A stretch of DNA of 64,000 bases from Amoebophrya sp. A120 (GCA_905178155.1 CAJINV010000011.1:2313331-2377330); one strand, 5' to 3'; positions 13,333 through 64,000 are shown, numbered from the stretch's first letter. The notes: generated by a model from the letters alone, not told the origin. A program made the numbers and translations.

Positions 13333-13482
13333 GGCTGGCGCCAGACACTAATAAACCTAATATATGTAGTAACACAACTTCTAACAACTACAACATCGAC
13401 GACTCTCATCTTCTCCATAAACTTTTTCAATCGAATATTAAAGCGTTTTTACCGTTAAAAGAATCAATCAAAAACAAGCACC

Positions 13483-16400
13483 ATGGATCTGCTTCACGAG
13501 ATGCGCAAGCACGCGGGGCCGCGGCTGACCGTGGGCTTGTATGACAGTGCACAACTACTCCCCCTCCCCCCCCATCTGTAAGTATAGTACGAACGGCTTT
13601 ACGAGCATCAGCAAGAGTGCCGGTTTTGCATGACAGATTTGCACTGGAGTGTAGTGCTATTTGGGGCATTAGATGAACTTGTGATGCATAATAGTGAAAG
13701 GAGGGAAAGCGTGGATTTGGTATTCTGCATGAGAAATGAGAACGAGGGGGAGTTGTGCATTGTCATAGCTTGCCCCAGGAGTACATCAAGAAATTTCTCG
13801 TGGAAGACCACCAACTCGTGCTGGCGATCCAGCACGCGCACGAGAAATGGAAACAATTAGATCCCGCGCAGACGTACCGGAAGCCGGAGGGGCAGCTGAT
13901 CGCGGAACTGCAACAGGGGTGGTGCCACCTGTACCCCGAGGACACGCGGAACCCCTACGTCCCGCTGGCCGCCAAGGGGCCCTGGATCGTCACCATGTAT
14001 GGGGCCGTGCTGCACGATAACGGCGGCTACGGCATGCTCGGATTCGGCCACTCCCCGGACGCGGTGATGAAGGCCATGTCCGAGGACGTGGTGATGGCCA
14101 ACATCATGACCCCGGCCCTTATGCATTGCAAAAGAATCGTATTGTAGTATGACTTGCATGACAAATTTTCTTAAGAACAAACACAAAGGTAACTGCTACA
14201 ATTTGGCATGCTAGTCCAGGTAGAAGATCGGGTTTGTGATGCATGATTTTGATTGCAAAAACCTCGTACTGCGACGGCGATACTTTTGCAATGCATAGCC
14301 CTGTATCAACTGTAAAAATGTCTGGGTCTGGAAGAATCCAACTTGTCATGCTGATTTTGGATTCCAAAAAAATCTGTATTGCATGAGCAGCAAAGCGAGT
14401 CCAAGTTTTGCTACACGGAAAGAGCATTTGTCATGCGGTATAGGCATCAGGAAGCCCTCACAAAATCTGTGATGCTAGGGCATGCATCACAGACATCAGG
14501 AGCCATGCAAAATGTGCATGACAAACCTGGAAATCTTCCAGACGCAGACATTTTTACATTTGATACCCTGGGGCAGAAACAGTTCATCGACGCGTTGCAC
14601 AAGGAGATCGGGTACCAAATGTAAAAGTGTCTGGGTCTGGAAGAATGCAACTTGTCATGCTAAATCTGAAGCATGCGAAAATCTGTGTTGCATGATTACC
14701 AAACGTCGTCCAGTTTTGACCAAGTCGGGAAGGACTTTCTCATGCAGGATAGGCATGAGAGAGATCGCGCAGAATCTGTCATGCTAGGTCCTGCATTCCA
14801 GACCTCATGGGTCATGGAAAAGCTGCATGACAAATCGCGCATTCTTCCAGACCCAGACACTTTTGCATTTGATATCGGGCACAACCGCCCGGACGGGTGC
14901 CCCTTCAGTGGGTTTCTTCTCATGAACTCCGGTTCGGAAGGGAATTCCGTCGCGGACCGGTTGATCGACATCCACACGGGGACCGTGATGGCCGAGCCGG
15001 AAAACCGAAATAAGAAGGTGAAGTGCGTCGCGCTGAAGGGCTGCTTCCACGGCCGGACCTACCGCCCCGCCCTGTGGACGGACGCCTGCCACGAGCGGTA
15101 CAGCTCGGCGGGGGTGTACTCGATCATGAAGTTATCCGAGAAAAAAACTGTGTTAGTGTAGGTGGCGTGAGGTGACAGCATGAGAAATCTGTTCTGCATG
15201 ACAGAAAAAGCATGTCATGCGCAGCTACTAAGTGAAAACACAAATGAAATAGGACTTCATGGTTGGCTAGCATGACAAGTCTAACAGTGTTGCATGCTTT
15301 GCATCACAGACTTACACTTACACAGTTTTTTTCTTGCATAGAAGTCCTACGAAGAGGAGTACTGCTGGATCTGCGAGGTGAACGACTGCGCCGACCTATT
15401 ACCATGAAAAATGCCCCCACCCCAATAAAAGTTGCAATAATTTGTGATGCGAAGTTTCCAAATGAAAACTTTTTGTCATGCATCAAAGGAATATGAGTCT
15501 TTTCTTAATCTTATCTTTTTGGTGCAGAGTCTAGGCGTATATAGCATTGCTTGCATGCGCATGGCAAGCGCCGCTCTTGCTGGGATCTGTTGCAATACAA
15601 ATCTTCGCTATTGACGATTGGAAATCTGTGATGCTGCTAGATGCAAGAGGGCGAGTGTTTCTGTTGGAAAGGTTTGCAATACAAATGCTCCCAAGTTCGG
15701 GGGTGGGGGCGTTTTTCATTGTGATACGACCTGCAGCGGCTGTTTGACAAGGCGGTGAAGGAGAATTGCTTCATCGAGGCGATGTTTGTCGAGTCCGTCA
15801 TGGGGGAGGGAAATCCCGGCGTGGCCATCACGGCGGAATTTTTCGCGAAGGCACGGGACTTAACCCTGAAACACAACTCCATGCTGCTTGTGGACAACAT
15901 TCAGGCCGGCATCCGCACGACGGGAAATCTTTCCATCGTGGACTACCCGGGCTTCGAAAAGATTCCCGGCCCGATATCCAAGAAAAAAACTGTGTTAGTG
16001 TAACTTTCTTTGGTTGCCAGCATCACAAATTTGCTCTACATGACCGAGAAAACCTGTCATGCGCGGCTTGTAAGGGAAAACACACATGAAAAGAGGACTT
16101 CATGGCTGTCGGGCATGACAGATGTAACTCTGTTGCATATTCTGCATTACAGAGTTACACTTACGCAGTTTTTTTCTTGCATATCCGGACTTCGAGGTGT
16201 ACAGCAAGGCGATTAACGCGGGCCAATACCCGGTCTATGCATTGCGAATATGTCTAGGTCTGGAAACTTGTGATGCTGAACTGTGCACGACTGAAATACT
16301 TCCCAAGGCAGCCAAGCATGACAAGGCTGCCGAACACTTTGCCATGCGCAGTCCGCATGACAAGCTGCGCTTTTATATGACACAAGAGGGCGTTTCATCG

Positions 16401-17876
16401 TTGGTCATGCAATACAGATCTTACAGGAATGTAGAACTGCATTACAAGGTCCATGGTTCCAGACCCAGACATTTTTGCAATGCATACGGTCTCCTGCCTC
16501 GCCATCTCCCCCCGCGCGCAGGCGTTCTACAAGCACGGGGTGTACGGAAACACGATGACGGGGAACCCGCGGGCGTGCTTGGTCGCCGCGGCGGTGCTGA
16601 ACAGCATCACGGAGCCGATGCGCAAGAACATCGTGCAGATGGGCAAATATGCAGTGGAAAAGTACAAGGAACTGCAAAAGGAGTTCCCAAATCTGATCAC
16701 AAACGTGACCGGCACCGGACTACTCTACGCGGTCCAGTTGAACGAGGCAATTTTCGCGGTGGTCGCCCGGGACGGGGCGGAGTACTGGCTGCGACAGCAG
16801 GGCCTGGGCGTGATCCACGGCGGACACAACGCGTTGCGGTTCACCCCGCGGTTCTGGATCACCAAGGCCGAAATCGACTTGCAGGTGGAGCTACGCATTG
16901 CAAATATGTTTGGATCTGAAAAGAATGGGACATGTGATGCTAACTTTGAATGATACAAGAACCTGTATTGCATGAATAGCAAAAGATTTGCGTAGATTTT
17001 TGCCACCCGGGGAGTGCATTTCTCATGCGGGACAGGCATTAGCAAGCCTTTGCGAGAGCTGTGACGCTAGAGCATGCATTACAGGGGTCGTGTCGCATGT
17101 ACTATTGTGCATGACAAACTCCCCCAATCTGGTGCCAGACCCAGAAAGATTTGCAATGCATAGAAGCTGGTCCGCGCGTTTTTGAAGCGGATGGACAGCG
17201 AGGCGGTGCGGCTGTTGGCACCGAGGTTGCAGAATTTGCGAATCGCGTCGTTGCGCGACATTTCCTCCACCGCGGCGGGGTCGTCCACCGGGGCCTCTTC
17301 CGGCGAGGAAACCTTCGGCGCCTTGCCGGACAGTGGGGACAGTAATAAGCCCCCGATGAAGTCAATTCAGCTGCTATCCTGAGTAAAAACGTACCCACAC
17401 CAGAGTCAGGATGGGGATTTTGCAACACAAACCTAGAAGCTTTGTGAGTCACGCATGACAAGTTGCAGTCCGTAAGGTAGTGCAAGTTAGCAAGGAAGGC
17501 CGCATCACAAATCGACCTGCTGATCCTGTTCACAGCATCACAAATTCCAAAACACGATTGGAAATGGCTCTCATGCGGATGCGCATTACAAGTCTTCCTG
17601 TCTTTGCAAATCTGCATTACAACTCTGGTGTGGGTACGTTTTTACTCAGGATAGCTGCAGCTCAAAGGGCACCTGTTCGACGAGAACATCATCAACGAGG
17701 TGCTCAACAAGGTGGAAAAGACCGAGGGCTCGGCGCGGATGCTCAGTTTGCGGTTGGGGGACAACGTGCGCGAGCAGTCGGAGGCGAAGTTGCAGGTGTT
17801 CACCCCGGCACCGCGGAAGAACGAGTTGCTGAAGCAACTGCAAGTGATGGAAAATTGCGAGATCACGTCGTCTTGA
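13483..17876 (+). CDS. lat: PLP-dependent class III aminotransferase, bacterial L-lysine 6-aminotransferase (LAT)-like, with a C-terminal LKR/SDH-interdomain (Saccharop_dh_N-like); 10 introner introns
   Basis: Spliced protein carries NPYVPLAAKGPW, LHDNGGYGMLGFGH, MANIMTP, NSGSEG, FHGRT, ESVMGEG, LLVDNIQAG, PDFEVYSKAINAGQYP (PLP lysine), YGNTMTGNP and LRFTP, then LKGHLFDENIINEVL. Confidence 0.85.
13540..13767. mobile_element. Introner, family F (TATGACAGTGCACAACT..CCCC TIR)
   Basis: DR GCTTG/GCTTG. Confidence 0.9.
14120..14297. mobile_element. Introner, family D
   Basis: TIR TATGCATTGCAAAAG; DR GCCCT/GCCCT. Confidence 0.9.
14304..14565. mobile_element. Introner, family A
   Basis: TIR TATCAACTGTAAAAATGTCTGGGTCTGGAAGA; DR CCCTG/CCCTG; inverted homolog of 27052-27313. 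Confidence 0.92.
14613..14874. mobile_element. Introner, family A
   Basis: DR TCGGG/TCGGG; near-identical to 56415-56726. Confidence 0.92.
15133..15340. mobile_element. Introner, family C
   Basis: TIR TATCCGAGAAAAAAACTGTG; DR GAAGT/GAAGT. Confidence 0.92.
15397..15726. mobile_element. Introner, family E
   Basis: DR CGACC/CGACC. Confidence 0.92.
15975..16183. mobile_element. Introner, family C
   Basis: DR CCCGA/TCCGG; removal gives PGPDFEVYSK. Confidence 0.88.
16236..16486. mobile_element. Introner, family A
   Basis: DR CGGTC/CGGTC. Confidence 0.92.
16892..17162. mobile_element. Introner, family A
   Basis: TAC start; DR GGAGC/GAAGC. Confidence 0.85.
17375..17653. mobile_element. Introner, family B
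   Basis: 29-bp perfect TIR TATCCTGAGTAAAAACGTACCCACACCAG; DR GCTGC/GCTGC. Confidence 0.95.
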
Positions 17877-18883: not shown

Positions 18884-21800
18884 ATGCCTAATAGACAAAA
18901 ACACCTGGTGGCACATCGGTCGCCAGTGGTGGTTGCGCAGGAGGATGAGCCGCAAGCTCTGTGCGCCCTCCGCGAGCATGTGCTGGGAACTATAACTACG
19001 CGGCATCTTCCAGGAGTTGTAGACGACCACAACGAGCGCGCACAGTTCGTGGCCGGGCTTCGGAAAACCTTGCTGCAGACGTTGCACGGGAACAAGAAAG
19101 CTACACAAGTTCCTTCCTCTCCTCGGTTTGTCGCTTCCGGCGCAGAGCTGACGGGTGGATCTTCATGCTTGTCCGAAGATGTCATCGCCTGGCTTTTCGC
19201 GCAACTCGGCGGCGGGAGGCCTGCCGAGGAGAAGCTACTGCTGCAGCACTGCTTGTTCAAACACCCAGTATCATTTTCGGCGTCAACTGCCAGCACGGCG
19301 TCTTCCACCAGAGCTACAGCCGGCAATAAAACCGGCGCCGCCGCCGCGGCACAAGAACAGCAGCAACACCAGACCCGAGTCGCTGTGCGACAGCGCGTTT
19401 ACGAGAATCTGCGATCGGACCTTTTACTTTATGAGGAGGAAGAGGAGGGGGAGACAGAAACGCGACTTGTGAGATATAATCTGCTCAGGTGTTACAATCT
19501 CAAACGTTACAATAGAATATGGAAATCTGTGATGCAAGAGTGCATGAGCTAGCCAACTCTCATAGGATTGCGCATGACAAGTTCCGGAGCTCCAAACCCC
19601 ACTACAATCTGGGAAAATTTGTATTGCAAAAGGTGGAACGCTGTGCGAGTCTGTCATGCCCATCATGCAACACAAATTCCAGATTCTATTGTAACGTTTG
19701 AGATTGTAACGCTTGAGCAGGTCATATGAGAAAGCTGCTCAAAGACAGCTACAGCGATGTACCTGCCACGCCGAAGATTGCTGCCTTGAGAAGCAGCAGT
19801 AGTAATCGCGGTGGTGCGATGAAAACTTTGGTCTCAGGAATAAGCGAGGATGAAATCAATCTGACATCTACTTCTTTTTCGTACGACGACATCCTGCACA
19901 CCACCATCGTTCGCTACCAGCTCTCGGAGCAGCTTGACGACTCGCAGCTTGTGGCTATGGAGCAGGGCTACTGGGAAGTTCTGGAGAGGCGAACCAGGAA
20001 ACAGGAGCTGTTCGGCAGTGCTGGGGCAGCAGCAAGAAATCGTGAGCCGTCATATGCGGGTAATCCTGCTTTTCTTCGCGAGCATAGTTCATCATCATCG
20101 CCCCTGCTTGTTGACCAGCAACAAGCACAAGGTCTAGTCGTGTCTGCACTAGCCGCGGTGCTGATCGGCAGCCCGACGAGGAGCCCAGCACACGGTGGCT
20201 CAGCGAAGCGTGAAGCTGCGGAATCGCTAGCACAGCTCGGCGGTATTTTGAAATCGGCCGCTTCGGTTCGCGTCCTATGATTAAGGAAAAAACTGTCTCT
20301 GTCTCAGGAGGGACAGCGCTGCAGATTCGCTCAGCATGACACGATGCGCAGTTTTTTAACAGGAACAAGAGTAGAAATAAACGCGTATACGGACAAGGTG
20401 TTTCTCTATCTCTTGCCTGTCATGCATGCCAGAAGCTTCTATCAACGAGTTGTTTGCGCATTAGATTATAACAGTTGAGCATGAGACAGTTTTTTGGCGC
20501 GATAGTTCTCTTGTGTTGTGCAATACTTACTTGCCGCGGACGAAATCTTAGAGCACGAAGAGGAGTTGCTGGCCTGCCTGGCAGAATTCATTTCCGAAGA
20601 TCGAAAAAACAAAAACTGCAAGAAAAGCCGGATTCCCACCACTACTTCAGAAGTGGTAGATCTGGAAACAGCGTTGACGGCGTTTTGCCGACGAGTCGTA
20701 ATTTCCAACTCGTCGTCAACATCCGCCGAACAGGACCAAGATCGGATCGCGACATCATCATCCTCAATCTTCGGCTGCTGCGGCAATTTGTCTGGATGGG
20801 CACAAAATCTGTTCTTCCGAAACGGTCTACCCATCGAAACCAGCGTTTACATGCTCGACCAGATTGCCGTCGCGTGGAAACTGATTTTCAGGACGAGAAC
20901 GAATCAAAACTACCTTCTCGCGTCTTTTCTCGAAGCTTATTTAGCAGCGCTGTTGCTGTTCGTGTTGCGGAAAGTGATCGCAGTCAGATCGTCTTCAAGA
21001 TCGACTGCTCACGATGCTGCACCCTTTCTCTCCGCAACTCCTAATGGGCTGTCTGCTAGTACAACAACTCCTTTAGCTTCGGAGGTGTGGGACTTTTTTC
21101 TCTCCTCCGCCACTTCATCAGCTGGGTCAATCGGCAACAAAAAGGCGCGGCACCACAAGACACAACTCGGGTTCTCTACCTGCACGGCCGCGAATTTTTT
21201 GCAATTGCTGAAGGACCTGCACGCCGATGAGTTTTTGCGGAAAGAGGTAAGGTACACTGTTTCATCCGATGAGGATGACACGAATTCTGGACAACTTGAC
21301 GACCCCACAACTAGCTCCGAGGAGCGTCTTCACGATTTTCTCGAGACTTATCGTATCCAGACCTCCGCCCGCCCGGTGCTGCGGCGGACACTGTCCGGAG
21401 AATTGCGGGGCCTTCTCCCCTTCGAGAGGCTCAGCGCTGCTGCCCAGCAAGAAGCGGTACAGGCACTGCAGGTGGTTGAGCAATCGAGGGTTGTGATGTC
21501 CACGCAGAAGAAAAAAAGCTTGCTTCGCTTCAACGAAGACGTGCTCTTCCGGCCGTTTCTCAGCCTGCCGCGTTTCCCAGAAGACACAGTCCAAGAGGTC
21601 GCGTTTTTTCTCATGTCGTGTCGGAATAATTTGACGCCCAGTGGGGAAACCATCGAGAGCAGGAGGGAAGCCCAAACTTTGGAGGCATACTGTGACAAGG
21701 TGAAAGCGAATCGCCTTCTTTCAGGTAGCCAATACACCTCCGAATCAGACCAGAAGAGGTTGTCACCACGAACGGCGTCAAAAAGCACCTTTCCAGCGCT

Positions 21801-22862: not shown

Positions 22863-24680
22863 ATGTCGGATAATCCCGTGTGGAAGGCTTTTAAGCCGTT
22901 CGTGACCGGTTCTATCTCCGGTTCCGTTGCGACATGCTGCATCCAGCCGATGGACATGGTGAAGGTAAGGATCCAAGTTGCCGCGGCCGAGGGAAAACCA
23001 ACCTCACCGGTAACGATTGCAACCACGCTGGTGAAGGAAGAGGGCTTCCTGGCGATGTACTCGGTAATAATACAACTTCAGGATCGATGGCTATGGCTTT
23101 AGTTTTGCTTCCTGGTTCTTGATGGTGCTGAAGGGAAAAAATGCAAAGCAATCGAACAGTCTTCACAATACCCGAAGTCGAATTTTGTTCATCACTGTAC
23201 AACAAGAAGAAAACCTCAACGTCAACAGGGTCTCTCGGCAGGGTTGACAAGGCAAGTCATATATACCGGGGCGCGACTGGGACTCTACGACATTTTCACA
23301 GACATGGTACTGATTTTTTTGCGACGAAGTGATTCTGCTCAACATGATTCGAGATGAACATATAAGTATGTAAGTAGTTCTAGGTCGTTCTGAGGTTTCG
23401 AAATGCATGCGTGGGACGTCGTCATTGATGTTTCGATATGCAGCATGTGTGAATGTGTACTATTTTAAAAACTGTTCTATACTTCAGGCAAAAACTCCGG
23501 GTGAGAAAACCTTTCCCATGTGGAAAACCGCCGCGTGCGCCCTGTCTGCCGGTGGTTATGCAAGAAAAACTGTGTATAGTGTAACTTTGTAATGCAGAAC
23601 ATGCAACAGAGTCGCACTTGTCGTGCGACACAGCCATGAACTTCTCGGTTCCTGTGTGTCTTCCCTTACAGGCCACGCATGACAGATTTTGTCTGTTGTG
23701 TAGAGCAAATTTGTAATGCTCTCGGCCAAAGAAAGTTACACTAACACAGTTTTTTTCTTGGATACTGGGATAGCAGCGGTAATTGGTAACCCAGCAGACC
23801 TGTCGTTGATCCGCATGCAGACGGACAGCATGCTCCCAAAAGCCGAACAGGTGGGCTACAGACACGCGGGACACGCTATGTCAAGTATTGCTTTGCTGGT
23901 TCTACTCAGATGTATTTTTTCCACGTGAAGATCGACACAATATTAAATACCTGTGATCTATTGCATGCAGATGAGTACCACCTCCACCTCCTAGATTATC
24001 CGTAGATCCAACATTTTTGCATGCCGTTGTGACCAGTTCAAGTTTAAAAAAAATTTTATTGCAATGGAATTACCTCTTCAAACAAGGTATTCTGAAAGGC
24101 GAGGGCTTCGTTGGTCTTTTCAAGGGCTCTGTGCCCACGAGCGTCCGCGCGATGGCGTTGAACTTGGGAATGCTCGGCGGAAACTCCGCGGCAAAAGATT
24201 TTTTGTCCGGATCGTTTGGACTGGAAAAGTCAGGGACAGCATGCGTGTTCGGGGCATCGGCGATCGCAGGCTTCTTCGCGTCGGCATTCTCATTGCCGTT
24301 TGGTACTAAGTTGTAAAATTTCAATGATTCTATGAATTGCAAAAGAAGTTGTATCGTACTACGTAGTAATTGCAATAAAAATTCGCTTAGCATGCTGATT
24401 TCCATGGCAACAAGATTTGTATTGTGCCTGACTGCAATGTCAATTAAATTTAAATCCAGATTTCGTGAAGACGCAAGTCCAGAAGGCCAAGCCGGATGCG
24501 AACGGCAAGATGCCCTTCAACGGCCCCATTGACTGCGCCATGAAGATGTTGGCCGAGGGCGGTCCACTGCGGTTCTACGCCGGATTCCCGACCTACTACT
24601 TCCGTATCGCGCCCCACGCGATGATCACGCTCATCGCCCAGGACAAGGTGAAGAAATTCTGGCAGAGCATCGGCGCGTAG
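22863..24680 (+). CDS. DTC: Mitochondrial dicarboxylate/tricarboxylate (2-oxoglutarate/malate) carrier; 4 GT-AG introns plus 1 introner
   Basis: PFVTGSISGSVATCCIQPMDMVKVRIQ, GNPADLSLIRMQ, SLPFDFVKTQVQK and GGPLRFYAGFPTYYFRIAPH. Introns 23064-23228, 23307-23487, 23885-24086, 24303-24459. Confidence 0.92.
23557..23764. mobile_element. Introner, family C
   Basis: DR GTGGT/CTGGG; inverted homolog of 15975-16183. Confidence 0.88.
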
Positions 24681-26113: not shown

Positions 26114-27595
26114 ATGGGCAAGCCAGTGATGAAGAATTTGGTGAAGAAGCAAGGCGCAGCTAGCAAGGCGGACTCTGCTGCAGAGAAGAAGAAAGCCGTC
26201 GAAAACAAAACCGTCACCCCCATTGCAGCTGCTTCCGAAGAAACCACCGAAAAGAAGGCCACCTCTGAACAAGCGAAAAACATCAAAGGGATGAAGAAGT
26301 CCATGAAAAATAAGCAGCCGCTGAAGAAAGAGAAAGAACATCCAGCCGGCGAAAACCAGAAGGTGAAAATCCAAGCGCCTCCTCCGCTCGCGAAGGTCGA
26401 TGCAGCTGTTGCGCAGGATGAAAATTCGGAAGAACAAAGCGTTGACGAAGAGGAAAACAACGATGAGGATGACGAATCTGTTTCCGACGAGGAGGATAAA
26501 ATTGCGATCCAATCCGCCTTGCAGAAACACCCGAACTCCAAGTCCGACCTGAAGAACCGCGTGCATAAAACCTCCACTAAAGAAGAGCGAAACGCCCGCG
26601 GCGTGCTCTACATTGGCCACCTACCGATGGGCTTCTTCGAACCGCAGCTGAAGATTTTCTTCAGCCAGTTTGGCGAAATCTGCCGCCTGAAGCTCTCCCG
26701 ATCGAAACAAACCGGCCGCCCGAAGGGGTACGCGTTCATCGAGTTTGAGTTGAAGGAGGTCGCGGAGATTGTGGCGAGCACCATGAACAACTATTTATTG
26801 TACGGACGGAAGTTGGAAGTCGCGTTGGTGGATGCTGAGAAAATCAAGATGATCGGTAGAGGCTTCTGGAAGAACTGGAAGCAGAACATCGTGCCGGTGG
26901 CCCGGACGAACCAGAAGAAGCAGAAGGAGCAGCACAAGGTCAAAAAGACGGAGGACGGGAAGAAAACCATTCTGTCCACCCGGCAGCAGCGCCGCGCGAA
27001 GACGAAGCTGTGGAAGATGGAGCAATTGAAGAACTGCGGGTTGGAAAACACTATCAAATGTAAAAATGTCTGGGTCTGGAAGGATGCAACTTGTGATGCT
27101 GCGTGTGGATTCCAAAAAAATCTGTATTGCATGAGTACCAAAGGGAATGCAATTGTTGCTACGCTGAGAAGGCATTTGTCATGCGGAATAGGCATCAAGA
27201 AGCCCTCAAAAAATCTGTATTGCTAGGGTATCGTTCACAGACATGATGGCTCATGCAAAACGTGCATGACAAGTGTCAGAATCTTCCAGACCCAGACATT
27301 TTTACAGTTGATAAACACTAACGAAGCGACTTTGAAGAAAAACGTCGAGGTTTTATCCAAGGCGAGCGTCGTCGCGCAAAAGGTCTCGGAATTGAACCCG
27401 AAGGGGGAGTTTGAGCCGAAGAAGGAGGAAAAAATCGAGGTGGTGCCGCAAGAAAAAGCCGTGGAAAAAGATGTTGAAAAGACGATGAAAACAACCACTG
27501 CATCCTCCGAGGATAAAAACAAAGCGACTGGTGGTTCGGGAGCAAAAAAGGTCGTTGGGTCGAAGAAGAAGGTGATGAAAAAGAAGTCGGCTTAG
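26114..27595 (+). CDS. NOP15: Nucleolar RRM protein Nop15/NIFK (60S biogenesis); 1 introner
   Basis: GVLYIGHLPMGFFEPQL..FSQFG..SRSKQTGRPKGYAFIEF..VAEIVASTMNNYLL; K/E-rich termini. Confidence 0.88.
27052..27313. mobile_element. Introner, family A
   Basis: DR AACAC/AACAC. Confidence 0.92.
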
Positions 27596-50618: not shown

Positions 50619-53600
50619 ATGAGCAGCACTGCGAAGAAGAATGCGGAGTTGCAAGATTGGGTGGTGGAGGCGGGCGAGGTACAACTCGACTCGCCCGAGC
50701 CCGTGGAGGTCGTGCAAAAAGTGCGCGATTATGATGTCGGGACACCAGCTTCATTGGGAACAGCGCAAAATAGTCAAAATTCCTTCGGCCGTGGCGGCCC
50801 AGCTTCGTCTTCGACGGCAGAATATGACATGAACTGGGGTCCCGATTATCCTGCAACGCCGACGTCGCAAGCGGCTTCATTGCAGAGAGAAGCGCAGGAA
50901 CAACGTCAAGGTCAAACTCTGCACGGCGCTACGCCTACGCAAGAAGTGGAGTACCAAACGAGTGCTAGCAAAAGAGCGACTTCCTGGGACAGACCGAACG
51001 ACGTCTTGGCCACCTCTCGAAAGGATAGCATAATATCGTCTAGCCCCGCTGGTGGTGCTGCTTCCTCTATGAGTGGCCTAGTAACGTCTTCCAGCTTCAA
51101 TATTGACGACATGTTTGACGCCGCAGGTAGTTCTGCGCGCGGGCGAAATAAATCGCATTCAAATTCTTCCAAATCAGCACAGCCGCCACGGTCGGACAAT
51201 CCAGCCATCCTCACATCAGCCGGCGGAACCACAAGGGCAATTCCTGCTGTGCAGAAGTCCCGCCGCGAAGCGGATACCAAGGCGCTCGACGCAGTGTTTT
51301 TGAGCCGTCGAGAAAATGATGAGTCGATCGAGGTTGCTGGGGAGAAAAGAAATTATGTTGAGAAAGGAAGAGGACTACAGGAGCAACCCGCTCTACTGGA
51401 TCCAAGCCAAAATCACGGCGGAAACGGCACGCCGACAGGGTCAGCAAGAGACGAAATATCTCCTGGCCATGCCCGGAAGGGATCGGCAGGTGTAAAAATG
51501 GCAACAGCAGAATCAGGAGGTCACCAGCACCGGGGGGAGTTGCAGCAAGTAGCTCTGGATGCGAACAGGAACGAAAAAACACTGACACATGAAGAGCACG
51601 CCGCTGATGTGGATGTCGTGCCGAAAGGAGGATCAGAAATGCAGCAGCACGACCTCCTCGACGACAGGGGACAACTACACTCGAGTGTACAACGCACACA
51701 TACAGGAGTGGCAGCCCGGACGACCGGCGCAACTACATTTAGCGAACAACGTGCATCAACTGCTGACAAGACAAGGACAACTCTATCTCCGATCCTGTTG
51801 AACCCAGCAACAGTTGGAGCCCGCCCAGCTTCAGCGACCTTTGAGCAGCAGATAGAGCAGTATAGTGACCACGCGATGTTGTCCGCAACTTCAACATCAA
51901 CTACAACATTGCGCACGAAACACTATACCAGTGAAGAACAAGATTTTATTCGCGCCGGCAAAGGTGATCTCATGAATAAAGATCAGCGAGTGGACGAACT
52001 ACAAGCGGAAGAGCAGCTGTGGATCCTGGCCGACGATCCCATGCTCGAGGAAGAGCAGGGGCCGCTGCAGCCGAGTTTAGTGTTCCCCTCCGGCGTGGTG
52101 CCGGGAGGTGCAGCTGCCTCTTTGGGCGAGCAAACCACCGCAGCAAGCAGAGACGGATTTTTGGGGACGTCGACGGCGGAACAAAATGAAAATCATCAAG
52201 AAAGTGGTCTTCTTCTGGACAACAACAATCTTTTTGCGGGTCCTTTGCAGAAGTCGTCTGACCAACAAGGAGACCACGACAGATCACAGGATGAAGAACA
52301 AGAGGGAACAAGCAACAAGATGAGCAATCTGTACAATGCGGCGCAGCTGTACGCGGAATACAACCGAAATTTGGAGGTCTGGCGGATGCTGCTGATTGAC
52401 TTTTTCCGGTTCCGGCACAAGAACCCCGAGAAAGTGAAAGAGCTGGTCCGCCGCGGGCTGCCGGAGTGCCTGCGGGGCAGCATTTGGCAGAAGCTGGCGC
52501 AGAGCCGCGAGTTGCAGTGGAAGTACCCCCGGAACCTGTACGAGTACCTGAAGCAGGTCCCGAGCGCGCCGTGCGAACCCGACATCCGGCGGGACACGAA
52601 CCGCACCTTCCCCAAGCACGTGCTGTACTGCGACCGGCAGGGGGTGGGGCAGCAGCAGCTGCTCCACGTGCTCCGGGCCTACAGCATTTTCAATCCGGAG
52701 GTGGGGTACTGCCAGGGAATGGGCTTCATCGCGGGGCTCCTGCTCTGCTACCTGCCCGAGGAGGCGGCCTTCTTCATGCTCGTGTCGTTGCTGGAGAACT
52801 ACCGCATGAGCGGCCTGTTCAAACTATCCTGAGTAAAAATGGCTCCACACCAGGGTCAAGATAGGAAATCTGCTAGACAAATCAACCAGCATTGGTTGTG
52901 TCGCATGACAAGCTTGTCCTGGTTCTGAAGCATCACAGATCTAGCGCATCATGCTGCTTGTAGCATTACAAATTCCAAAGCACGAATAGAAAATGGCTCT
53001 CTTGGGGCTCCGCATGAGAAACCTTTTCGGCATGCAGATTTGCATGGCATCCACTCTGGGTGGGGACGTTGTTACTCAGGATACAAACCCAACCTTCCCC
53101 TGTTGAGCAAGTACTTTTTCCAGCTCAACCTGCTGATCCGGATGCACCTGCCCAAACTGCACGACCACCTGCAGCTGAACTCGGTGGAGCCCACCATGTA
53201 TGCCTCACAGTGGTTCATGACGGTCTGCATCTACCAGTTTCGGTACTCGACGGTTTGTCGCGTGTGGGACATCTTCCTGGCCGAGGGCGTGAAGATCATT
53301 TTCCGGGTGGTATCAGAGTGCACAAGTAGAACTTCCCCTCGCCCTCATTTCTCATGCAAAATGCCAGGCCGACCATTTTTCTTTTTGTTTTTTGCCTCTT
53401 CGCACTCTTAGCATGACAGGTTCTGCTGGCAGCACTACAATCCTGATGAATTTGTCATGCGAAACCTGCTCAACTCTTGCCAACGCTGGTATTGCCATTG
53501 CTGTTCACACTATAAATATAAATGAGGGACGAGAGCAGGGGTGGGGAGTTGTGCACTCGGATAGGTGGCGCTGGCGCTGCTGAAGCTGAACCAGGAGAGC

Positions 53601-53981
53601 CTGCTGCAGTGCGGGTTCGAGGACATTTATCGCAAGAAAAAAGTGTTTACAGTTTTTACACATTGTGTTGCGGGGGCCGCAAGACAGACGACCTTTGTCA
53701 TGCAGGAAATACCTGCAAGCCTCGTTTCCTTCGTATTTTCCCTTATGTATGATCTTTGCCTTACTCTGCCACACTGAGAAAATTTGTGATGCAGATGAAC
53801 AAACTCCAACAAATGTGTAAGTGCAACACTTTTTTCTTGGGATAGCATTCTGCAGGTACTCAAGCTCGCCCCGGCCCAGACGGAAACGGAGCTGCTCATC
53901 CAGACCGCGCTGGGCATCAAGCTGAAAGCCTCCGTGCTCAAGGACCTCGAGCAGGAATTTTTGAAATCCGGACAGAAGTAA
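50619..53981 (+). CDS. TBC-domain Rab GTPase-activating protein (EVI5-like) with a long disordered N-terminus; 3 introners
   Basis: LVRRGLPECLRGSIW, IRRDTNRTFPKH, VGYCQGMGF, YASQWFMT, RVWDIFLAEGVKIIFRVALALL. Confidence 0.92.
52825..53083. mobile_element. Introner, family B
   Basis: DR CAAAC/CAAAC. Confidence 0.9.
53311..53563. mobile_element. Introner, family F
   Basis: DR GGTGG/GGTGG. Confidence 0.9.
53628..53844. mobile_element. Introner, family C
   Basis: DR ACATT/GCATT. Confidence 0.88.
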
Positions 53982-55497: not shown

Positions 55498-58400
55498 ATG
55501 AGGTCTACGGCAACTACTACCCGGGCGTGCTCTCCGGAGATGTTTGCGCTTTTCCATCTGTTTCTCCTCATCTTCAGCGCGGACTTTGTGGCCTTGCGAG
55601 GCGCGGCATCCTCGACCTCCAACGAACCAGGAACAACTGCTACTTCGAACCGGTCAAGACGCATCCATCTGCCGGCCTTTTCCCCGGTCGTGCAGCCGGT
55701 CGTGTGGCCGCCCGCAGCAGCAGCTCCCTCTGGTTTGCCCGCGATCGGGGCCCCTGCTCGGGCGTTTTCGAACGCTGCGCAGTGGCTCCACACGGCCGGA
55801 CAAAGTTGTTGCAGAGCTTCCACTGCCTCGTCCTGGTCCACCTCGTCGGCTGCATCTTCGAAGGACCCGTCAGCCGCGACGAGCTCATCTAGTTCCGGTG
55901 GGGGACCACGACAAGATCACGTTTCTGCAGTACCAGCACAAGAGCAGCCCAGCACGAGGGCCGCCCCCGCGAGGACGACTACCCCCAAAGCCGAGCCGAA
56001 GAACAAGAGTCGTCTCTTTCACTGGACGAGGACCAGCACGAGGTCGTCGGCTAGCAGCGCCACCAGCACGACTTCGCGGGGAAACGCGACGATGAACTCC
56101 AGTCGATCGTCCGGTACGGGAGTTTATAATTCATCTGATCCGTTCTCTAATCCTTATCCTACGAACAGTACTGATCTTCATCTTCGACGACCAAAGCCTG
56201 AACAAGAAGCAGCAGGGCAACGAGATGTTGACCACAAGGGTGCTGCGCGGAGTAGAAGAAGCGGCCTCATGAACAAGATGACTGCGGCCACTGGCAGCTT
56301 CTCCATCTTCAAACTACGGAAGAAACACAGAATCGCACCAGCTCCCGCGAACAATGGACCGTTGCATCAAGACCAGGACGCCCTCCGGAGCGGGAGTACT
56401 ACAACTGCTCGCACTATCAAATGTAAAAATGTCTGGGTCTGGAAGAATGCAACTTGTCATGCTAAATCTGAAGCATGCAAAAATCTGTGTTGCATGATTA
56501 CCAAAAGTCGTCCAGTTTTGACCAAGTCGCGAGGGAGTGTCTCATGCAGGATAGGCATGAGAGAGATCGCACAGAATCTGTGATGCTAGGTCCTGCATTC
56601 CAGGCCTCATGGGTCATGGAAAAGCTGCATGACAAATCGCGCCTGCAAAGGTTTTTGATGTGGTGCAGTCGGGTATGCATGACAAATCGCGCACTCTTCC
56701 AGACCCAGACATTTTTACATTTGATACGCACCCCTTTAAATACAACTTCGTCCTTCACCTCCCTAGTGCCTGACCACGTCGGAGATGAATCATCTCTGCA
56801 CTGTTTCAGCCGCCAGCACACGCCCGAGGCGGGAACTTCATCGGTTTTTATTTCGACGCCAGTTGTAGTAGATCCAGCAGCTGTTGGCCTTGGCCGCGCG
56901 GACATTTTCACGAGCCCCGAGAACAACTACCTGGGCGCAGGAGGTTTGAATAACACCTCCGCTTATTTGAAGACGGGCGATTGTTCCGCAATTCATTGCA
57001 AATCAAATCAAATCAAATCAAATCAAATCAAATCAAAACACCAAGAGCACCATCAAGTGGCGGCGGGGCCGCGCCAGGTTTATTTTTCCACATGGACGAC
57101 ACGACTTTGGCCGGACAAGAGGAAGGAGCGGCTTGTTCTCAGTTGTCCACCTCTGCTGGCGAAATGGCGGCCGGATCGCAGGACTCGTCGGGCGGCAAAG
57201 CGGAGAGTTTGATCAACACGGGTGAGGACTCAATGAAGCACCGCGTGCAAACGGGCTCGACCGCAGACCCGGGGTCGTTGCTCTCTCGGCCGAGCACGGG
57301 GTGCACCCCAGAGAACATGGCGAGTATCCCATGTGAAAATAGAGCGTGCTGCCCATCTTCCCAGACTTGCTGTCATGCTGACCTTGCATGATATTCAGAA
57401 GGTCTCTGCTTTCATCCTCGGGGCAAGGATCATTCTGCCATCAGAGCCATATACTCAAATCAGGAAGTTGAGAGAGATCCTGGATTCGCATTAATGCGGC
57501 TGCGCGAGCTATCAAACATAAACATAAACAGGCACGAGTTGACGCACGCTGCGGATTTAGAAAGAGCGTCATGCTCATCATGCGCAACAGCCATAGCCAA
57601 AATAAGCCCTCGACTTTCTATATGGAGCAGCGCAGCCCAAAAATGGGTCCTCGCTGGGTAAGTACAATTTTTTCCAACAGCATACCGAGCCCGAGATCCT
57701 CCTCTAAAGTGTCCCCGACAGAGAGCGCCGGGACAGAAAACGGAAACGCAGAACAGCACAACCTGCAGACTCTGGCCGAGACAAGCGAGAAAGACTCTGC
57801 AAGTGAGCGGCATTGGGTGTCCACCTCTTCAGCAAACGAGGACGGAGCAGCAATGTCTGGGAACAAAGGAGAGGCACAGCAGCTGCAGCGCCGCCAGAAC
57901 GAGGCGCCGCCCCGCTTTGGCAGCATGGCCGCGCGCGGGGTGGCTGCCGCCCCTGGGGAGGAGCTGCACGAGCAGCCTCTTCTTTTTACCCGCGTAGGAG
58001 CTCCTGCTTTTCGAGGGGAAGGAGAAGCCCTGCCGCGCTCCAGCGCGTCTTCGCCAAGCTCGTCAACCGAGGCGGAGTGCGAAGGTTGTGCCCCCGCTAA
58101 GGAAGTTTTCAACATCTCCGCGTCGCCGTTTACCGGGCATTATGCGTTGCTAGTTACAATGTGTGGGTCTGGAAGTAGTAGCATGTAGCTCTAGCTTGTC
58201 ATGCGAAGTCCTCTCGACCAGAAAAATATATAACAAAAAAATCAAAATGTAAATGTTGCATGTCCGCGTGATGCATGACAAATCCTGCCTTCTACTTCCA
58301 GATCCATCATACACATTTGCAATGCATAGGCAGTCCTCAGTGCCTTCGTCCAATTGTCCGGCGAAGATCGTGTTCAACAGTACGGCTCGCGGCCAAAGCT

Positions 58401-61400
58401 ATGCGGACAAGAATTCTGCTGGTGAAAAGCGTTCATCTTCACCATTGATGTCGCGGGCGCCGTCGGGCCTCGACGTTGACGGAGAACCGTCATTAGGGCG
58501 CGTATTGTGCATCGCGGCCGCGGCCACCTCTACCACATCATCTCAGTGCCTAGGAAGCAGCAGCGCATCATCTTCGGCGCCAAAGGATAAAGTAGAAACC
58601 CAGCCGCCTCTTGCTGCTGCACAGCAATACTACACACCCGCCTTTTTTCTGGCGCGTGGTCGGGTTACCTCTTCTGCAACCAGTTCGGCCCCGCAGGCTT
58701 CGACTTCTTCCTCTTTGTCCTCGACAGCTGCTCCTCAACACCTTGGGGGCATGGCACCGACTTTCGGGTTCCCGCGGGCAGAGGCGGAAACAGCAACGAG
58801 AGCCGGCGCAGCAGCAGCAGCAGCCGCACTTCCTGTACAACCACGCTCAAACAACTTCGTGAGCAGTAAATCTGAAGCAGAAAAGGAAACAAACGCCCGT
58901 TTCCGCACGAAATTGTGCAACGACGAGAACAAGCAACGTGGTGGCGGTGATGTACTTCTAGAGGAACAAGAACTACAACAAGTTGCACCAGTAGCGCTCC
59001 TCAACCAGCACCCCGGAACAACAAGGAACGGCGCAAACGCAACGGCCTCGGACCTGCAACTGCACGCCGGTCGGGATCCTCACCAGAACAACAGTGGGTT
59101 CTCGTCGGCGCGCCCGTCGGCCCTTTTTGCCGTGGGGGGCGGCGGTGGACAAGAATCGCACGAGGGCCTCCACCGGCTCGGCACACGCACAATCACAGAA
59201 CCCGATCTGCTGGCGGCCTTGGACCCTAGTACGGCCCAGCTTTCGTCATCGGACAACGAAAGCGAAGGTGACGATGGTGGCCACGATGCTGGTACAGCAG
59301 GGCAGCGGAAGTCAGCTAAAAATGGTCGCGGAGATGAGGATCGCGATGTCCTCGCGAGAGCATCGCGATCTTGCGACGAGCTTCGTGCATTGATCGAGTT
59401 GGAAGCGGATGGCTTAGAGGAGAGGACCAACTACGCCGGACTGCGTTTGCCACGCCAGTGGACCGGCCACTGGATGGAGCCAGACCTGCGACCCGCCGTG
59501 CTGCCCATCAAAAAGGAAGCCGAGCGGCAGGATAAGTTTCGTCCAAAGGGGCCTCGCCCCACGTTCACCGCCGCGGGGCGGCGGGAAGCGTTATTTACGC
59601 TCTCACCCACTGCCACTCAGGTGCAGCGTGCTGCCCGGTCGGCCCGCGCCAAGGGTTGTGCTAAGCTGGGGAAGGTGCTCCGAGAGCGGCGCGCGACAGA
59701 GACGTCCTCGTCCTCGTCTGAAAACGAGTCGGCTGGAGAGGACGAAGACATTATGTTCGCGTCTGCAGAGGACCACGCAGAGGTGGACACTCAGCCCGAG
59801 GTGGACCCCACTGACCCGTCCCAAGAACAAGATCAAGTAACGGGCGAACACCGCGACGGACAGGGACAAGGCGAAGAACAGGGGCGAGAGGATATCATAT
59901 GTAAAAACGTCCCCACACCAGAGTCAAGATGGGAACTGAGCAACACAAATCCAGAAGTTTTGGGAGCCATGCATGACAAGTTGCAGTCCGTAGTGTAGTG
60001 CATGTTAGCAACGACGACCGCATCACAAATTCATCTGCTTATCCTGTTTACAGCATTACAAATTCCAAAACACGATCGGAAACGCCCCTGAAGGAGATGC
60101 GCATTACAAATCTTCCTGTAATCGCAAATATGCATGACAACTCTGGGGTGGGGACATTTTTACTCAGGATAGAGGAAATTACGGGAGGGGCGGCGGAGGT
60201 GCATCATGTTGACGACGACTGGGTTATTGTGAGGAAAAGTCCCCCCTTCCCATACCAACCCGGGACAATTCTGAAAATTTGTGATGCTGATTTGTGACCA
60301 CAAATCGACTCTGTATTGCAAGAAGGCAAATCGAAAAAACCCCGCCGCGTTCTGCAGGGAATTTGTCATGCTGTGTGGCCTACAGAGGATGCGACTGCCT
60401 TGCCAGGCGCCTACACCAAAACGCCCCTACCCAGGCTCTTTATCTGCCTGCAGTCCTCTACTGCACGACAAAGCCGATTTGTGTACAGAAATTCCGCATC
60501 GCGGATTTTCATTTCGGTATGGGGCGGGGGGATGTTTCCTTTTGATATGGGTCGCGTTTTTTTCCCCGCATGATTGGCTGTATCACGGGGTTCAGGTCAA
60601 GGACGCGAGACTGCGGTGCTGGGTTGATCACGTTGAGGCAGTTGTCTGTCCGGATCCTGAAGATTTGGCGCCGCGCAGCGACCCGTACCCTTCGGAGGCA
60701 ACGCCGGAGTCACAATGCTCGAGCAATCATGACGTCGACAACGAGTCGAGGAGCTCGACGAGCTCTAGTAGCGCTGGCGACCAGGAGGTGAGCCAGCAAG
60801 TCAACAATATTGCCTCCGTCTCTTCGCGGCCCCATGGCGACGTCGAAGAGCTCCGGCCTGCCGCGGAACAACTTTTCATTCCGCACGGCCTCGATGATGT
60901 CAATTTGGAGCGAGAACAACCCCGGAGCTGCAGTCCGGCCCCGCGGGTGGTTCTGCAGTGCCGCCGCACGAGAGCCACTCGCCTCGCGTCGCTCGCGCCG
61001 GTGTATTCCAGCTGCACACCGGTCTATCCTTTGGAAAAACGGGGCCCACAGCACGACCTCCCCAGAGTCAAGAGGGGGATTTAGCAGTAAACAAATCAAC
61101 AAGGTTTCGCTGTTGCGCATGTTGACAAGTCTGGGATCGTAGTGTCATGGTGTTTAAGTAGTTGTGCAGGCGCATTACAAATCGATCATCCTATCCAGAT
61201 TGTAGCATGACAAAGACTAAGACAACCTGCCAGGCAGCATTAGAAAGTGCCCCTTATGAACAATATGTGGAGCTGGTGTGCTGGCGCATGAGAAACTTTT
61301 ATAGACATTCCAGTTTGATGATGCAGCTGCATGACACGTCTGGGGTGTGCTTGGCCTTCTTATTTTTACTCAGGATACGGGCATCGCGGAGGACAGTTCC

Positions 61401-64000
61401 CCCTTCGTGCTCCACAGCCGCGATCTGGCGGAGCCGATTTTGGTTTCGATGCAGGGCGGCAAGCCCGACGTGGAAGAAGAAGTCGTGCAGCGGAAAGACG
61501 GGGCAGCAGTTGCTGCTCCAGGCGGGGCAGTAGCTGCTGGCACGACCTTATCTTGTGCAAAAGTATCGTACTAGTATAAGCTGCATTACAAATTGACTTT
61601 AGCATTACAAATTTAATTTGTAATGCTGATCTACCTCGAGAAGGAGATTTGTAATGCATAAATGCAATTACTACGAGTACGATGCTTTTGCACAGGATAG
61701 ACCTGGTACGTCGAACAGCTGAACGACGGATATGGTGTTCTCAACTGTTGCATTCTCAACTGTATACATGAATTTGTGATGCAAGAATGGCAAAAGTCAA
61801 AGCAGGAAGGTTGCGCCTTGAGCATTACAAATCCCGCACAGATTTAGGCTCTCTTTAGCCCTTCCAAAACTTGTCATGCGAAGTAGCTCCACCTTGTGGA
61901 TGTTGATGCTCATTTTGCATGACGAATCATGTAACAGTTGAGAATGTAACGCTTGAGAACGCCATAACGTATCTGAAACGGTGTTGTCCGACGAGGAGGG
62001 CGCTTTTCTGCACCAGCAGTCCACTGCGGTGTTATGGCGGGAGGAAAGAATATCGCAAGAAAAAACTGTTTCACTGTAAACTTGTGATCCATAGAACGGA
62101 ATGCAAATGTGTTTGTGTTACTACACATGCAAGACATTGGATTTTTTTTTTAGCTGTGTTTTCCCTCAGGAAGCACGCATGCCAAGATTTCTTTGTCATT
62201 TGTAACAAACTTGTGATGCAGATCTTGCAAAATCATCACAGTGAAACAGTTTTTTCAAGGGATAAAGAACGCCACTGTGCCCCCTGCGCGGTTCTCTGCG
62301 CCCGTTTCTGTTGGGCAACCTCTCCAGTAGGATGACGGACTTGTGTATCCAAGAAGATTTTTGTGCGTGTAACTTATATTTTTGGAGGCATTTTTAGGTA
62401 TTTTTACAGCACAAGCAGCATTACAAATGCAAATCTGTCTGGCATGATGAGAACAAAAACCTGTCATGCGCAGATGATGCGTGAAAATATAAATAATGCG
62501 GCTCAGTCGTGGACGACCTCAGAATGGCAAGGCATATGTACAGCATGACAAATGATTATCATCTTGCATGTTGCGCATCACTTAGTTACGCCAACAATGT
62601 TTTTTTCTTGCATACTGTGGGCAGCCAAAATATGGCGTTCTCAAACGTTACATTCTCAACTGTTACATGCACTTGCAATGCAAGAAAAGCAAAAGTGAAA
62701 GTGGCAACGTGGCAGCTTTCGCATCACAGATTATGATGCTGTTTAGCCTTTCGAAAATTTGTCATGCTAAGCACCTTGATCAAGTGGAGGCTGATGGCAA
62801 TTTTGCATGACAAATTCATGTAACACGACTTGAGAATGTAACAGTTGAGAACGCCATACAAAAGGGGGGAGATGTGGAAGAACCGCAAACGAGTGGACCG
62901 CAGTCTCGCGAAGGTATGAGAGTGGTTCACAACTCCCCCTCCCCTCATTTGTCATGCAAAAACGCAGTTCCACTTCCAGGCACTGCCTCTCATCGCTACC
63001 TTGCATGACAGACTTGGGAATTATTCAAACAGTACTTATAAACCGCACGCATATTCGTCATGCGGAAGCTACATTTATTCTGACCTTCTGTCTATTGTTG
63101 TTCTTGCCTTGTTCAAATGAGGGTGACTCAGGGGGAGTTCTTGTGCTGCACTCTCATAGTCGGGGTTCAAACACGAGAAGCCACCGCCTCCCTGGATTTT
63201 CGAAGTCACAGCACCACAAACGTTGCCTTACCCGGGTGACGCCGACGAGTGCGAGGAATGGGAACGCATCCAGGCCAAGCTGCTAGACGAGTTGCGCCGC
63301 GTGCATATTGATCCGCACGATAAAAATGTTATCCCAAGAAAATAAAACTTTGTAGCGTGGAACTTTGATGATGCAACTGAACTGTAATAAGTATGCAACT
63401 ATGCAGATCGACATCATGCAGAGTGAAGATGAACATGAACACCCACAGCCACACTTATGAAAATATGCGTGGAGTATGCTAGTGCGCTTCCATAATTTTC
63501 GTGGACTAGTAGTACACCCAGGGCCAGGACATTGGGCACGTCAAAAACTTTCCTACTGCCGCGCCCGCTTCAATATTTCCATCGCGCGCTACTACTCAGT
63601 TTTTACGCACGACCACAAGGCTCTTATTCTGCAGGAGTCCTCTGCAAATATTTGGGATTCATCTCATCATGCTTATGTTTTCGTTTGCATTATGAGTGCC
63701 CGCGGCCACAGTTTTAAAAACATTTCCCTTGGATATTCCAGAAGAAGAGCCCCGACGCCGACGAAGAACAGCAGCAGAACACTGGCGAGGAGCAAGGTGT
63801 CGACCGGCCTCCCGTGGCAGCCAATGTCTTGCACGGGGCCAACCTCCCTGTCCCGGACCAGGCAACCGAAGCGAACGGCAGGCGGAGAGAAATGGTTCCT
63901 CTGGATGAAATATCCTGTGCAAAAGTATTGTACTGTAGTATTGCAATCATGCATTACAAATTTTTTTCTTAACGGGAAATCCGCAATACAAGTCTATTAA
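55498..64000 (+). CDS. Very large hypothetical protein, largely low-complexity, with ~14 introners; start uncertain, runs off the window end
   Basis: ORF segments join in frame across successive TAT...ATA elements. Junctions at 57001-57035 and ~57325-57630 are unresolved, so this could be more than one gene. Confidence 0.55.
56415..56726. mobile_element. Introner, family A, with a 50-bp internal expansion
   Basis: DR CGCAC/CGCAC. Confidence 0.92.
57001..57035. repeat. (AATCA)7 microsatellite
   Basis: Seven perfect 5-bp units. Confidence 0.95.
57325..57629. mobile_element. Possible highly degenerate introner; right end uncertain
   Basis: Starts TATCCCATGTGAAAA, contains TGTCATGC, and separates two coding ORFs. 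Confidence 0.4.
58141..58328. mobile_element. Introner, family A
   Basis: DR GGCAT/GGCAG. Confidence 0.85.
59893..60171. mobile_element. Introner, family B
   Basis: DR GAGGA/GAGGA; same orientation as 17375-17653. Confidence 0.92.
60225..60547. mobile_element. Introner, family E-related
   Basis: DR TGGGT/TGGGT. Confidence 0.82.
61025..61377. mobile_element. Introner, family B, degenerate
   Basis: DR CGGTC/CGGGC. Confidence 0.8.
61549..61699. mobile_element. Introner, family D
   Basis: DR GACCT/GACCT. Confidence 0.9.
61731..61966. mobile_element. Introner, family G (TATGGYGTTCTCAA TIR)
   Basis: DR ACGGA/ACGTA. Confidence 0.88.
62051..62264. mobile_element. Introner, family C
   Basis: DR AAGAA/AAGAA. 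Confidence 0.88.
62346..62614. mobile_element. Introner, family C
   Basis: DR TTGTG/CTGTG. Confidence 0.82.
62631..62858. mobile_element. Introner, family G
   Basis: DR CAAAA/CAAAA. Confidence 0.9.
62915..63158. mobile_element. Introner, family F
   Basis: DR GAAGG/GTCGG. Confidence 0.8.
63330..63735. mobile_element. Degenerate introner, family C-like
   Basis: TATCCCAAG...CTTGGATA ends; DR not recognisable, but removing the element plus 5 nt restores the frame. Confidence 0.55.
63911..64000. mobile_element. Introner, family D, truncated by the window end
   Basis: TATCCTGTGCAAAAGTATTGTACT left TIR. Confidence 0.8.

Follow-up and report, generated by a model that had tools for sequence, protein, structure and literature searches.

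Known systems and the elements of this locus

Amoebophrya has been reported to contain approximately 30,000 introners, which fall into nearly 2,000 families; their mode of movement and their splicing in the absence of GT-AG borders and U1 small nuclear RNA (snRNA) are left open in the genome paper (PMC7789003). Those of Amoebophrya sp. A120 are described there as non-canonical introns of approximately 240 nt with inverted repeats composed of TAT, seven variable bases, and As, bordered by direct repeats of 3 to 5 nt and located in co-oriented genes. We analysed a 64,000-nt stretch of the A120 genome (GCA_905178155.1 CAJINV010000011.1:2313331-2377330; hereafter, the window) that carries 52 elements alike in these respects, and the subject of this work is a short motif, GCAT[GCT]ACAA or its complement TTGT[CGA]ATGC, that recurs inside them. 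The sections of PMC7789003 covered here describe no internal motif, and a family-specific motif in the inverted repeats was looked for there with a negative outcome. The elements of the window differ from that description in having a target-site duplication (TSD) of exactly 5 bp outside the TAT...ATA ends and in sharing one internal motif across families.

A later survey (PMC12130899) lists A120 family 38 as a terminal inverted repeat (TIR) DNA transposon of the Ginger type with “5-bp TSD, TA/TA termini” and open reading frames similar to the integrase region of Copia/Gypsy, and most other A120 families as “TIR DNA, Unknown” (rows 1-40 of 58). Compared by description only, family 38 is unlike the window elements in its length of approximately 808 bp and its TIRs of 49-53 bp. 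Ginger1, Ginger2/TDD, and GingerRoot are TIR DNA transposons with an integrase-like transposase (PMC2836005, PMC6839031). Ginger has TGTNR termini and mostly a 4-bp TSD (PMC2836005), in contrast to the TAT of the window elements. TDD-4/5 have a 5-bp TSD, as the window elements do, a fit that holds for TDD only. GingerRoot has the same TA...TA termini but also a 6-bp TSD and TIRs of 100-150 bp (PMC6839031), which elements of the window type lack: an exact 6-bp repeat was found in 0 of 155 elements (a set partly chosen on 5 bp) and in 0 of 27 candidates picked blind to the TSD. TIRs in the Ginger group span 40-300 bp, and the parts of these two papers covered here describe no internal binding motif.

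Repeated internal sites are known from other transposons. The ends of Tn7 and of CRISPR-associated transposons contain repeated transposase sites whose spacing has effects with a periodicity of approximately 10 bp, and the host factor IHF binds there as well (PMC10201428); hAT elements carry subterminal repeats (PMC4763223), likewise short repeated sites. As in these systems, the motif described below is a short repeated word conserved above background, with constrained spacing both between sites and to the element end. In the Tn7 and hAT kind, however, the first site lies 8 bp from the tip and the array is polarised and belongs to one element family, whereas here the first site is 30-40 bp from the tip, the layout is not constant, and families that differ in their TIRs have the motif in common. 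The nonconventional introns of Euglena (PMC12501133) are also non-GT-AG and have base-paired ends, but their code consists of terminal CAG/CTG at fixed offsets, whereas the present motif lies in the interior, occurs in several copies, and is strand-neutral. It is unreported in the literature searched (introners, Amoebophrya, transposases, two supplements, and the review PMC11282704), a search with subscription papers mostly outside its scope. The cis-element is real and apparently unreported, and it is kin to subterminal binding repeats, being unusual in that the elements it serves form introns and belong to many TIR families.

Occurrence of the motif in the window

The window contains 99 matches to the strict 9-mer or its complement, of which 85 fall within 14304..63158, 13 upstream, and 1 downstream. 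All 99 lie inside the 52 elements, which occupy 12,820 bp, and none in the remaining 51,180 bp; the initial annotation had judged the motif rare in exons and intergenic DNA by eye. Markov models of orders 1-4 trained on the elements themselves predict 1.0, 1.3, 4.7, and 16.8 matches. In 19 canonical introns with GT-AG borders, chosen by eye and totalling 3,589 bp, there was no match to the core and a single site of a wider matrix motif (score ≥10).

The elements were delineated by a motif-blind scan for TIRs and TSDs, whose 43 candidates contain 92 of the 99 strict matches. One weak candidate with no motif (22002-22393) was dropped, one was re-bounded, and 10 elements were added by eye, 5 of them located via leftover motif matches. 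With the 42 machine-called elements alone, 92 matches fall in 10,213 bp and 7 outside.

The strict 9-mer is present at least once in 45 of the 51 complete elements and at least twice in 30, whereas at least two matrix sites are found in 45 and none in 2. The earlier statement that nearly all elements hold several copies thus stands for the matrix motif and fails for the strict 9-mer. The element at 17375-17653 holds five strict copies rather than the four first counted, and those at 38940-39229 and 61549-61699, for which several had been noted, have four each. The recurrence of the internal motif in the window elements is confirmed, and the pattern is stronger than first described.

Occurrence in metagenomic loci

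A triple-motif scan of metagenome contigs yielded at least 119 stretches. Among the matches listed, 28 of 118 metagenome loci match window elements and 90 do not. Fifteen long loci, none orthologous to the window, were analysed, and the 15 elements in them that matched the search pattern were left out, which gave 79 unselected elements. Of these, 69 contain the strict motif, at a density of 7.6 per kb vs 0.49 per kb outside the elements; most outside sites lie in clusters resembling uncalled elements. These loci were retrieved via the motif, so they come from motif-bearing genomes and carry no information on its wider spread.

The combined set of 156 elements, which includes 11 from short loci and one duplicate pair, sorts into 13 singletons and 11 families with more than one member. 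Only one gapped 8-mer, GCAT.ACAA, occurs in 50% or more of the members in every one of these 11 families. Among the matches listed, the 18 non-matching loci that were mapped and the one that was read are mostly tandem arrays, and none pointed to another organism carrying the motif in elements of a different type. In a viral collection, 68 stretches (67 loci) fitted the triple-motif pattern and none held a convincing motif-bearing TAT...ATA element, and the family-B TIR word gave 0 matches; one locus there (L059) holds a single AT-rich candidate element, which is not convincing.

Conservation of the motif and relatedness of the families

The fuller consensus reads H-GCA(T/A)-B-A(C/G)A-R-R-T. 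In six families, with sites labelled from a third sequence, identity at the fixed motif positions is 0.85-0.94, compared to 0.48-0.66 in the rest of the interior. Between nearest neighbours (109 elements with a perfect TSD), mismatch amounts to 5.3% in the motif and 21.4% elsewhere in the interior; the outermost 13 nt (13.6%) and the remainder of the TIR (11.9%) fall in between, and the ratio of motif to interior holds in every identity bin. The motif is therefore approximately 4-fold more conserved than the other interior, and more conserved than the TIRs.

Position 5 changes freely among G, C, and T in homologous columns, and A accounts for only 8 of 208 minor alleles; in columns dominated by G, G>A makes up 5 of 106 changes vs 490 of 1,082 (45%) in background columns. 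Because mismatch is low and position 5 avoids A, the motif is under selection, and in the alignments this combination is the profile of a recognised site.

The families had initially been taken as unrelated. This was overstated, as their ends share the signature TAT-S-N6-AAAA and the 5-bp TSD, and 9 of 66 pairs of family consensi score z≥4 above motif-preserving shuffles. Spacers of 31-33 bp likewise show residual similarity (identity of 0.37 vs 0.30). Since the families are faintly homologous, they probably share a deep ancestry, from which the motif and its spacing would have been retained while the rest diverged. The residual similarity of consensi and spacers, together with the common end signature, could also be taken to mean that the motif is a passive relic of one repeat-rich ancestor of all families. 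That explanation is very improbable and largely refuted by the approximately 4-fold lower divergence of the motif than of neighbouring sequence at every level of relatedness; the avoidance of A amid otherwise free exchange at position 5 and the site layouts, which differ by family, also speak against it. Of the two parts of the alternative that the initial annotation had set against itself, common ancestry without extra conservation, the first is faintly visible, and the second is contradicted by the clear extra conservation of the motif.

Strand neutrality

The interrupted genes run on the plus strand, and the matrix sites of the window are divided 95 to 95 between the two strands. In 108 elements oriented by reading frame, sites number 107 on the sense strand and 106 on the antisense strand. 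Family A has up to six sites per element, all in one direction, and its elements occur in both orientations in plus-strand genes (9 vs 2); in family B the lean is towards the other side. Since there is no strand bias to the transcript, the motif is a DNA signal and not an RNA signal.

The elements lie in coding frames and must leave the mRNA, and the GCAUG core resembles known RNA-binding words, both of which would suit a pre-mRNA signal such as a splicing enhancer, a branch-like site, or an RNA-binding site. We nevertheless regard such a role as hardly credible: a non-palindromic motif read in RNA does not agree with the even sense-strand count or with the orientations of families A and B, and the core is absent from the 19 canonical introns. 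In family A RNA, moreover, the closing stem is formed by the TIR, and the sites are unable to pair with each other. The RNA-binding option of the initial annotation is accordingly not supported.

Spacing and layout of the sites

In 11 of 20 family representatives, the distance between adjacent sites in the same orientation is 31-33 bp, or three turns of the helix, and none of 5,000 random placements reached this number. These spacers deviate by at least 2 bp from their modal length in 9 of 93 cases, compared to 32 of 124 among the remaining spacers. The distances in head-to-head pairs concentrate at 45-50 and 16-17 bp and those in tail-to-tail pairs at 15-16, 33-34, and 47-49 bp. Relative to the element tip, the first inward TGT..ATGC site is located at 36-37 bp (49 ends) or 44-47 bp (75 ends), with only 3 of 177 such ends at 41-43 bp, and both distance classes occur behind the same family-B TIR.

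Two stricter schemes were rejected: an end asymmetry of the 12/23 type, as most families have the same distance class at both ends, and a strictly alternating 16/32-bp lattice, as head-to-head pairs at 16-17 bp reach the threshold in 2 of 12 families.

The suggestion of a common cis signal uniting the families is thus supported by enrichment, replication in the metagenomic loci, extra conservation, and fixed spacing, including the spacing from the TIR ends.

Proposed role of the motif

With moderate confidence, we propose that the motif is a subterminal-type binding site on double-stranded DNA for one shared transposition machinery. A sequence-specific DNA-binding domain, belonging to the transposase or to a host cofactor of transposition, would bind 2-6 copies per element and deliver the catalytic domain to the TAT tip at either of two distances approximately one helical turn apart. 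Recognition via the internal sites and a minimal tip (TAT and the A-tract at positions 11-15) would leave the middle of the TIR free to drift, which in this proposal is why one enzyme could serve many TIR families. From the termini and the TSD only, we infer an enzyme of the retroviral integrase type (Ginger-like), and the elements would work like miniature inverted-repeat transposable elements of such an enzyme. Selection would act at each round of transposition, with the sites decaying after insertion, and removal from the pre-mRNA would rest on the element ends and their hairpin.

Consistent with a role in mobility, the elements at 5760 and 63330 have no site, yet they lie in frames that are restored by their removal. 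In total, the restored frames hold two elements with no site and four with a single site, of which four offer no GT..AG option. Motif mismatch to the family consensus (4.0% in elements with a perfect TSD and 4.5% in those with a damaged one) is close to half of the 7.2% mismatch between TSD copies, as expected from neutral decay, but differs little between the two groups. Elements capable of GT..AG splicing have 1.52 sites per 100 nt vs 1.68 in the others (26 vs 82 elements, p=0.19); there was no sign that elements converted to GT-AG introns are freed of the motif.

Several observations weigh against a shared transposition machinery. Farhat et al. (PMC7789003) rejected mobilisation by a general transposase and reported no transposase in A120. 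We likewise found no transposase or autonomous element in the window or in the 15 loci. As the families are related, part of their common spacing is due to descent, and the shuffle test treats them as more independent than they are. In addition to the 177 ends whose first site points inward as TGT..ATGC, approximately 75 (about a third) have the reverse orientation. Spacings of 18, 39, and 48-49 bp are off the 10.5-bp period, and site number, order, and polarity vary by family, unlike in the polarised ends of Tn7. Motif mismatch hardly rises with TSD damage. Two long elements from the metagenomic loci also fit poorly; neither has a credible Pfam match in nine frames (L118:505-1608 and L133:11405-12270). 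The former (1,104 bp) has F7-type TIRs and a perfect 5-bp TSD, but its four sites are all at the left end, followed by GC-rich repeat filler, with no site near the right end. The latter (866 bp) has TA..TA ends, a 51-bp TIR, and a 4-of-5 TSD; it contains no GCATBACA site and, instead, 11 copies of GTGAAA/TTTCAC, several of them 17 bp apart. It is possibly part of a parallel system with its own motif, and it is similar to family 38, as described in the literature, in its ends and the length of its TIR. Because this TA..TA element lacks the motif and has the GTGAAA repeat, the integrase-like family 38 may belong to another system.

The same DNA-level features (strand, spacing, and end distance) would fit equally well a host or domesticated protein that recognises the motif as double-stranded DNA and is required once the element is in place, either marking it during transcription for intron removal or organising its chromatin. 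Such a protein is an unlikely alternative but one with some evidence behind it. U1 snRNA has apparently been lost in Amoebophrya (PMC7789003), and the 37 of 51 elements with no in-frame GT..AG need another recognition route. Mismatch is also particularly low at G1 (2.8%), C2 (1.3%), and A8 (1.8%; 617 aligned sites), hardly rising with TSD damage. On the other hand, four elements with no or one site and no in-frame GT..AG (5760, 41651, 57325, and 62051) persist in restored frames, and GT..AG-capable elements have kept their sites. In the window, elements with a more damaged TSD have a lower site density (rho 0.38, p=0.005), although this is not the case in the metagenome set (rho 0.01). A role combining the two seems doubtful: here a single protein, either a domesticated transposase of the integrase type or a DNA-binding partner of it, would read the phased array for mobilising the elements and also for marking them as they are transcribed. 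If true, it would mean that DNA, and not RNA, defines non-GT-AG introns by the tens of thousands in a lineage seemingly without U1.

The binding site of one shared transposase, as first suggested, remains the best fit to these data, with the enzyme itself a predicted one. One conserved and phased DNA site across families would collapse the diversity of introners to a single system, and a shared site speaks against the conclusion of PMC7789003 that there is no general transposase mobilisation. It suggests a transposon design in which specificity resides inside the element and the TIRs are left free. In practical terms, the 11-mer and the 31-33-bp dimer could serve as pull-down bait, and the motif as a signature for the autonomous element and a basis for an intron predictor.

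The elements and their host genes

The elements (Table 1) are 138-406 bp long, non-coding, and interrupt host reading frames. They start with TAT (sometimes TAC) and end with ATA, with arms mostly of 20-35 bp; the element at 17375..17653 has perfect 34-bp arms that include part of the TSD. In the 312 ends of the combined set, T1 is found in 311, A2 in 310, and T3 in 300, and A at positions 11-15 in 214-281; TAT ends were demanded by the element finder, whereas the A-tract was not. Among the 27 candidates picked blind to the TSD, 19 have an exact 5-bp TSD and none has one of 4 or 6 bp. No target-site preference was detected beyond a mild GC lean. In these features the elements match the published description, which identifies them, at the sequence level, as probable introners of the A120 type.

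In silico excision of each element with one TSD copy reopens long frames on the plus strand, including one of 621 aa over 10 elements, an exon of which matches Aminotran_3, and one of 1,235 codons over 12 elements. We infer from this restoration that the elements leave the mRNA by splicing. Their lengths show no bias to multiples of three.

Table 1. Elements of the window (52) and one host gene. Symbols list the matrix sites in order and their orientation (+, GCAT..ACA on the plus strand).
Position	Feature	Family	Matrix sites	Found by	Remarks
5336..5608	element	B (F0)	-+++	scan	
5760..5971	decayed element		none	by eye	C-like ends; TSD shifted
7714..7904	element	singleton F12	---++	scan	
8004..8284	element	A (F3)	----	scan	reversed copy
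8307..8486	element	D (F1)	+--	scan	
9096..9409	element	G (F10)	-+-+++	scan	
10548..10751	decayed element		--	by eye	
13483..17878	host gene, class-III aminotransferase, plus strand				10 elements inside; 621-aa frame after in silico removal
13540..13767	element	E (F4)	+-+	scan	
14120..14297	element	D	+--	scan	
14304..14565	element	B	----++	scan	
14613..14874	element	B	----+	scan	
15133..15340	element	C (F2)	++++	scan	
15397..15726	element	G	--++-+	scan	
15975..16183	element	C	+-++	scan	
16236..16486	element	B	-+-+++	scan	
16892..17162	element	B	---++	scan	
17375..17653	element	A	++++++		strict copies at 17453, 17502, 17535, 17583, 17614
19475..19726	element	F (F6)	-+--+	scan	
20276..20504	decayed element		1 site	by eye	
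23557..23764	element	C	--+-	scan	
27052..27313	element	B	----+	scan	
29828..30134	element	F7	-+-++	scan	
32355..32571	element	C	+--	scan	
38576..38866	element	A	------	scan	reversed copy
38940..39229	element	A	++++++	scan	
39426..39679	element	B	----	scan	
40694..40979	element	A	++++	scan	
41651..41872	decayed element		+	by eye	
42356..42601	element	H (F8)	+++	scan	
42789..43041	element	B	---+	scan	
45155..45400	element	H	+--	by eye	
45578..45794	element	E	-+--	scan	
45901..46056	element	D	+--	scan	
46133..46347	element	C	---	scan	
46442..46579	element	D	+-	scan	
52825..53083	element	A	++++	scan	
53311..53563	element	E	-+-	scan	
53628..53844	element	C	+--	scan	
56415..56726	element	B	---++	scan	
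57325..57684	decayed element		1 site	by eye	
58141..58328	element		-+	scan	B-type ends; internally deleted
59893..60171	element	A	++++++	scan	
60225..60547	element	F5	---+	scan	
61025..61377	element	A	+++++	by eye	
61549..61699	element	D	++--	scan	
61731..61966	element	F	-+-+	scan	
62051..62264	element	C	1 site	scan	
62346..62614	element	C	+-+	by eye	
62631..62858	element	F	-+-+	scan	
62915..63158	element	E	-+-	scan	
63330..63735	decayed element		none	by eye	in-frame GT..AG available
63911..64000	element			by eye	D-type left end; cut by window edge

Other insertions and individual elements

An intergenic inverted-repeat element at 12525-13335 has seven AAGGGAG repeats near its ends, a duplicated GCGC-rich 41-mer, and no GCATBACA core. 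A WD40 gene contains an insertion of approximately 1.2 kb (30521-31790) with tandem repeats of approximately 109 bp and no motif, flanked by a 42-bp exact duplication of the intron-exon junction (30521, 31745). Two GC-rich regions with short repeats, 32640-33350 and 54940-55480, resemble other insertions and have no motif and no second copy in the window or the loci.

In family B, taken over the window and the loci, the same type of TIR is followed by two or more distinct interiors, and the variants at positions 4-7 occur in mixed combinations at the left and right ends, which suggests recombination between elements. One copy of this family has a 50-bp internal duplication (56627-56685) that supplies one additional site. 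The canonical GT-AG intron at 24303-24459 includes approximately 50-60 bp that match the end of a family-D element at 84-86% and are the remnant of an introner. Finally, the elements at 14120-14297 and 14304-14565 are separated by only 6 nt (14298-14303) with overlapping TSDs, which leaves a micro-exon of approximately 1 nucleotide in the restored frame.

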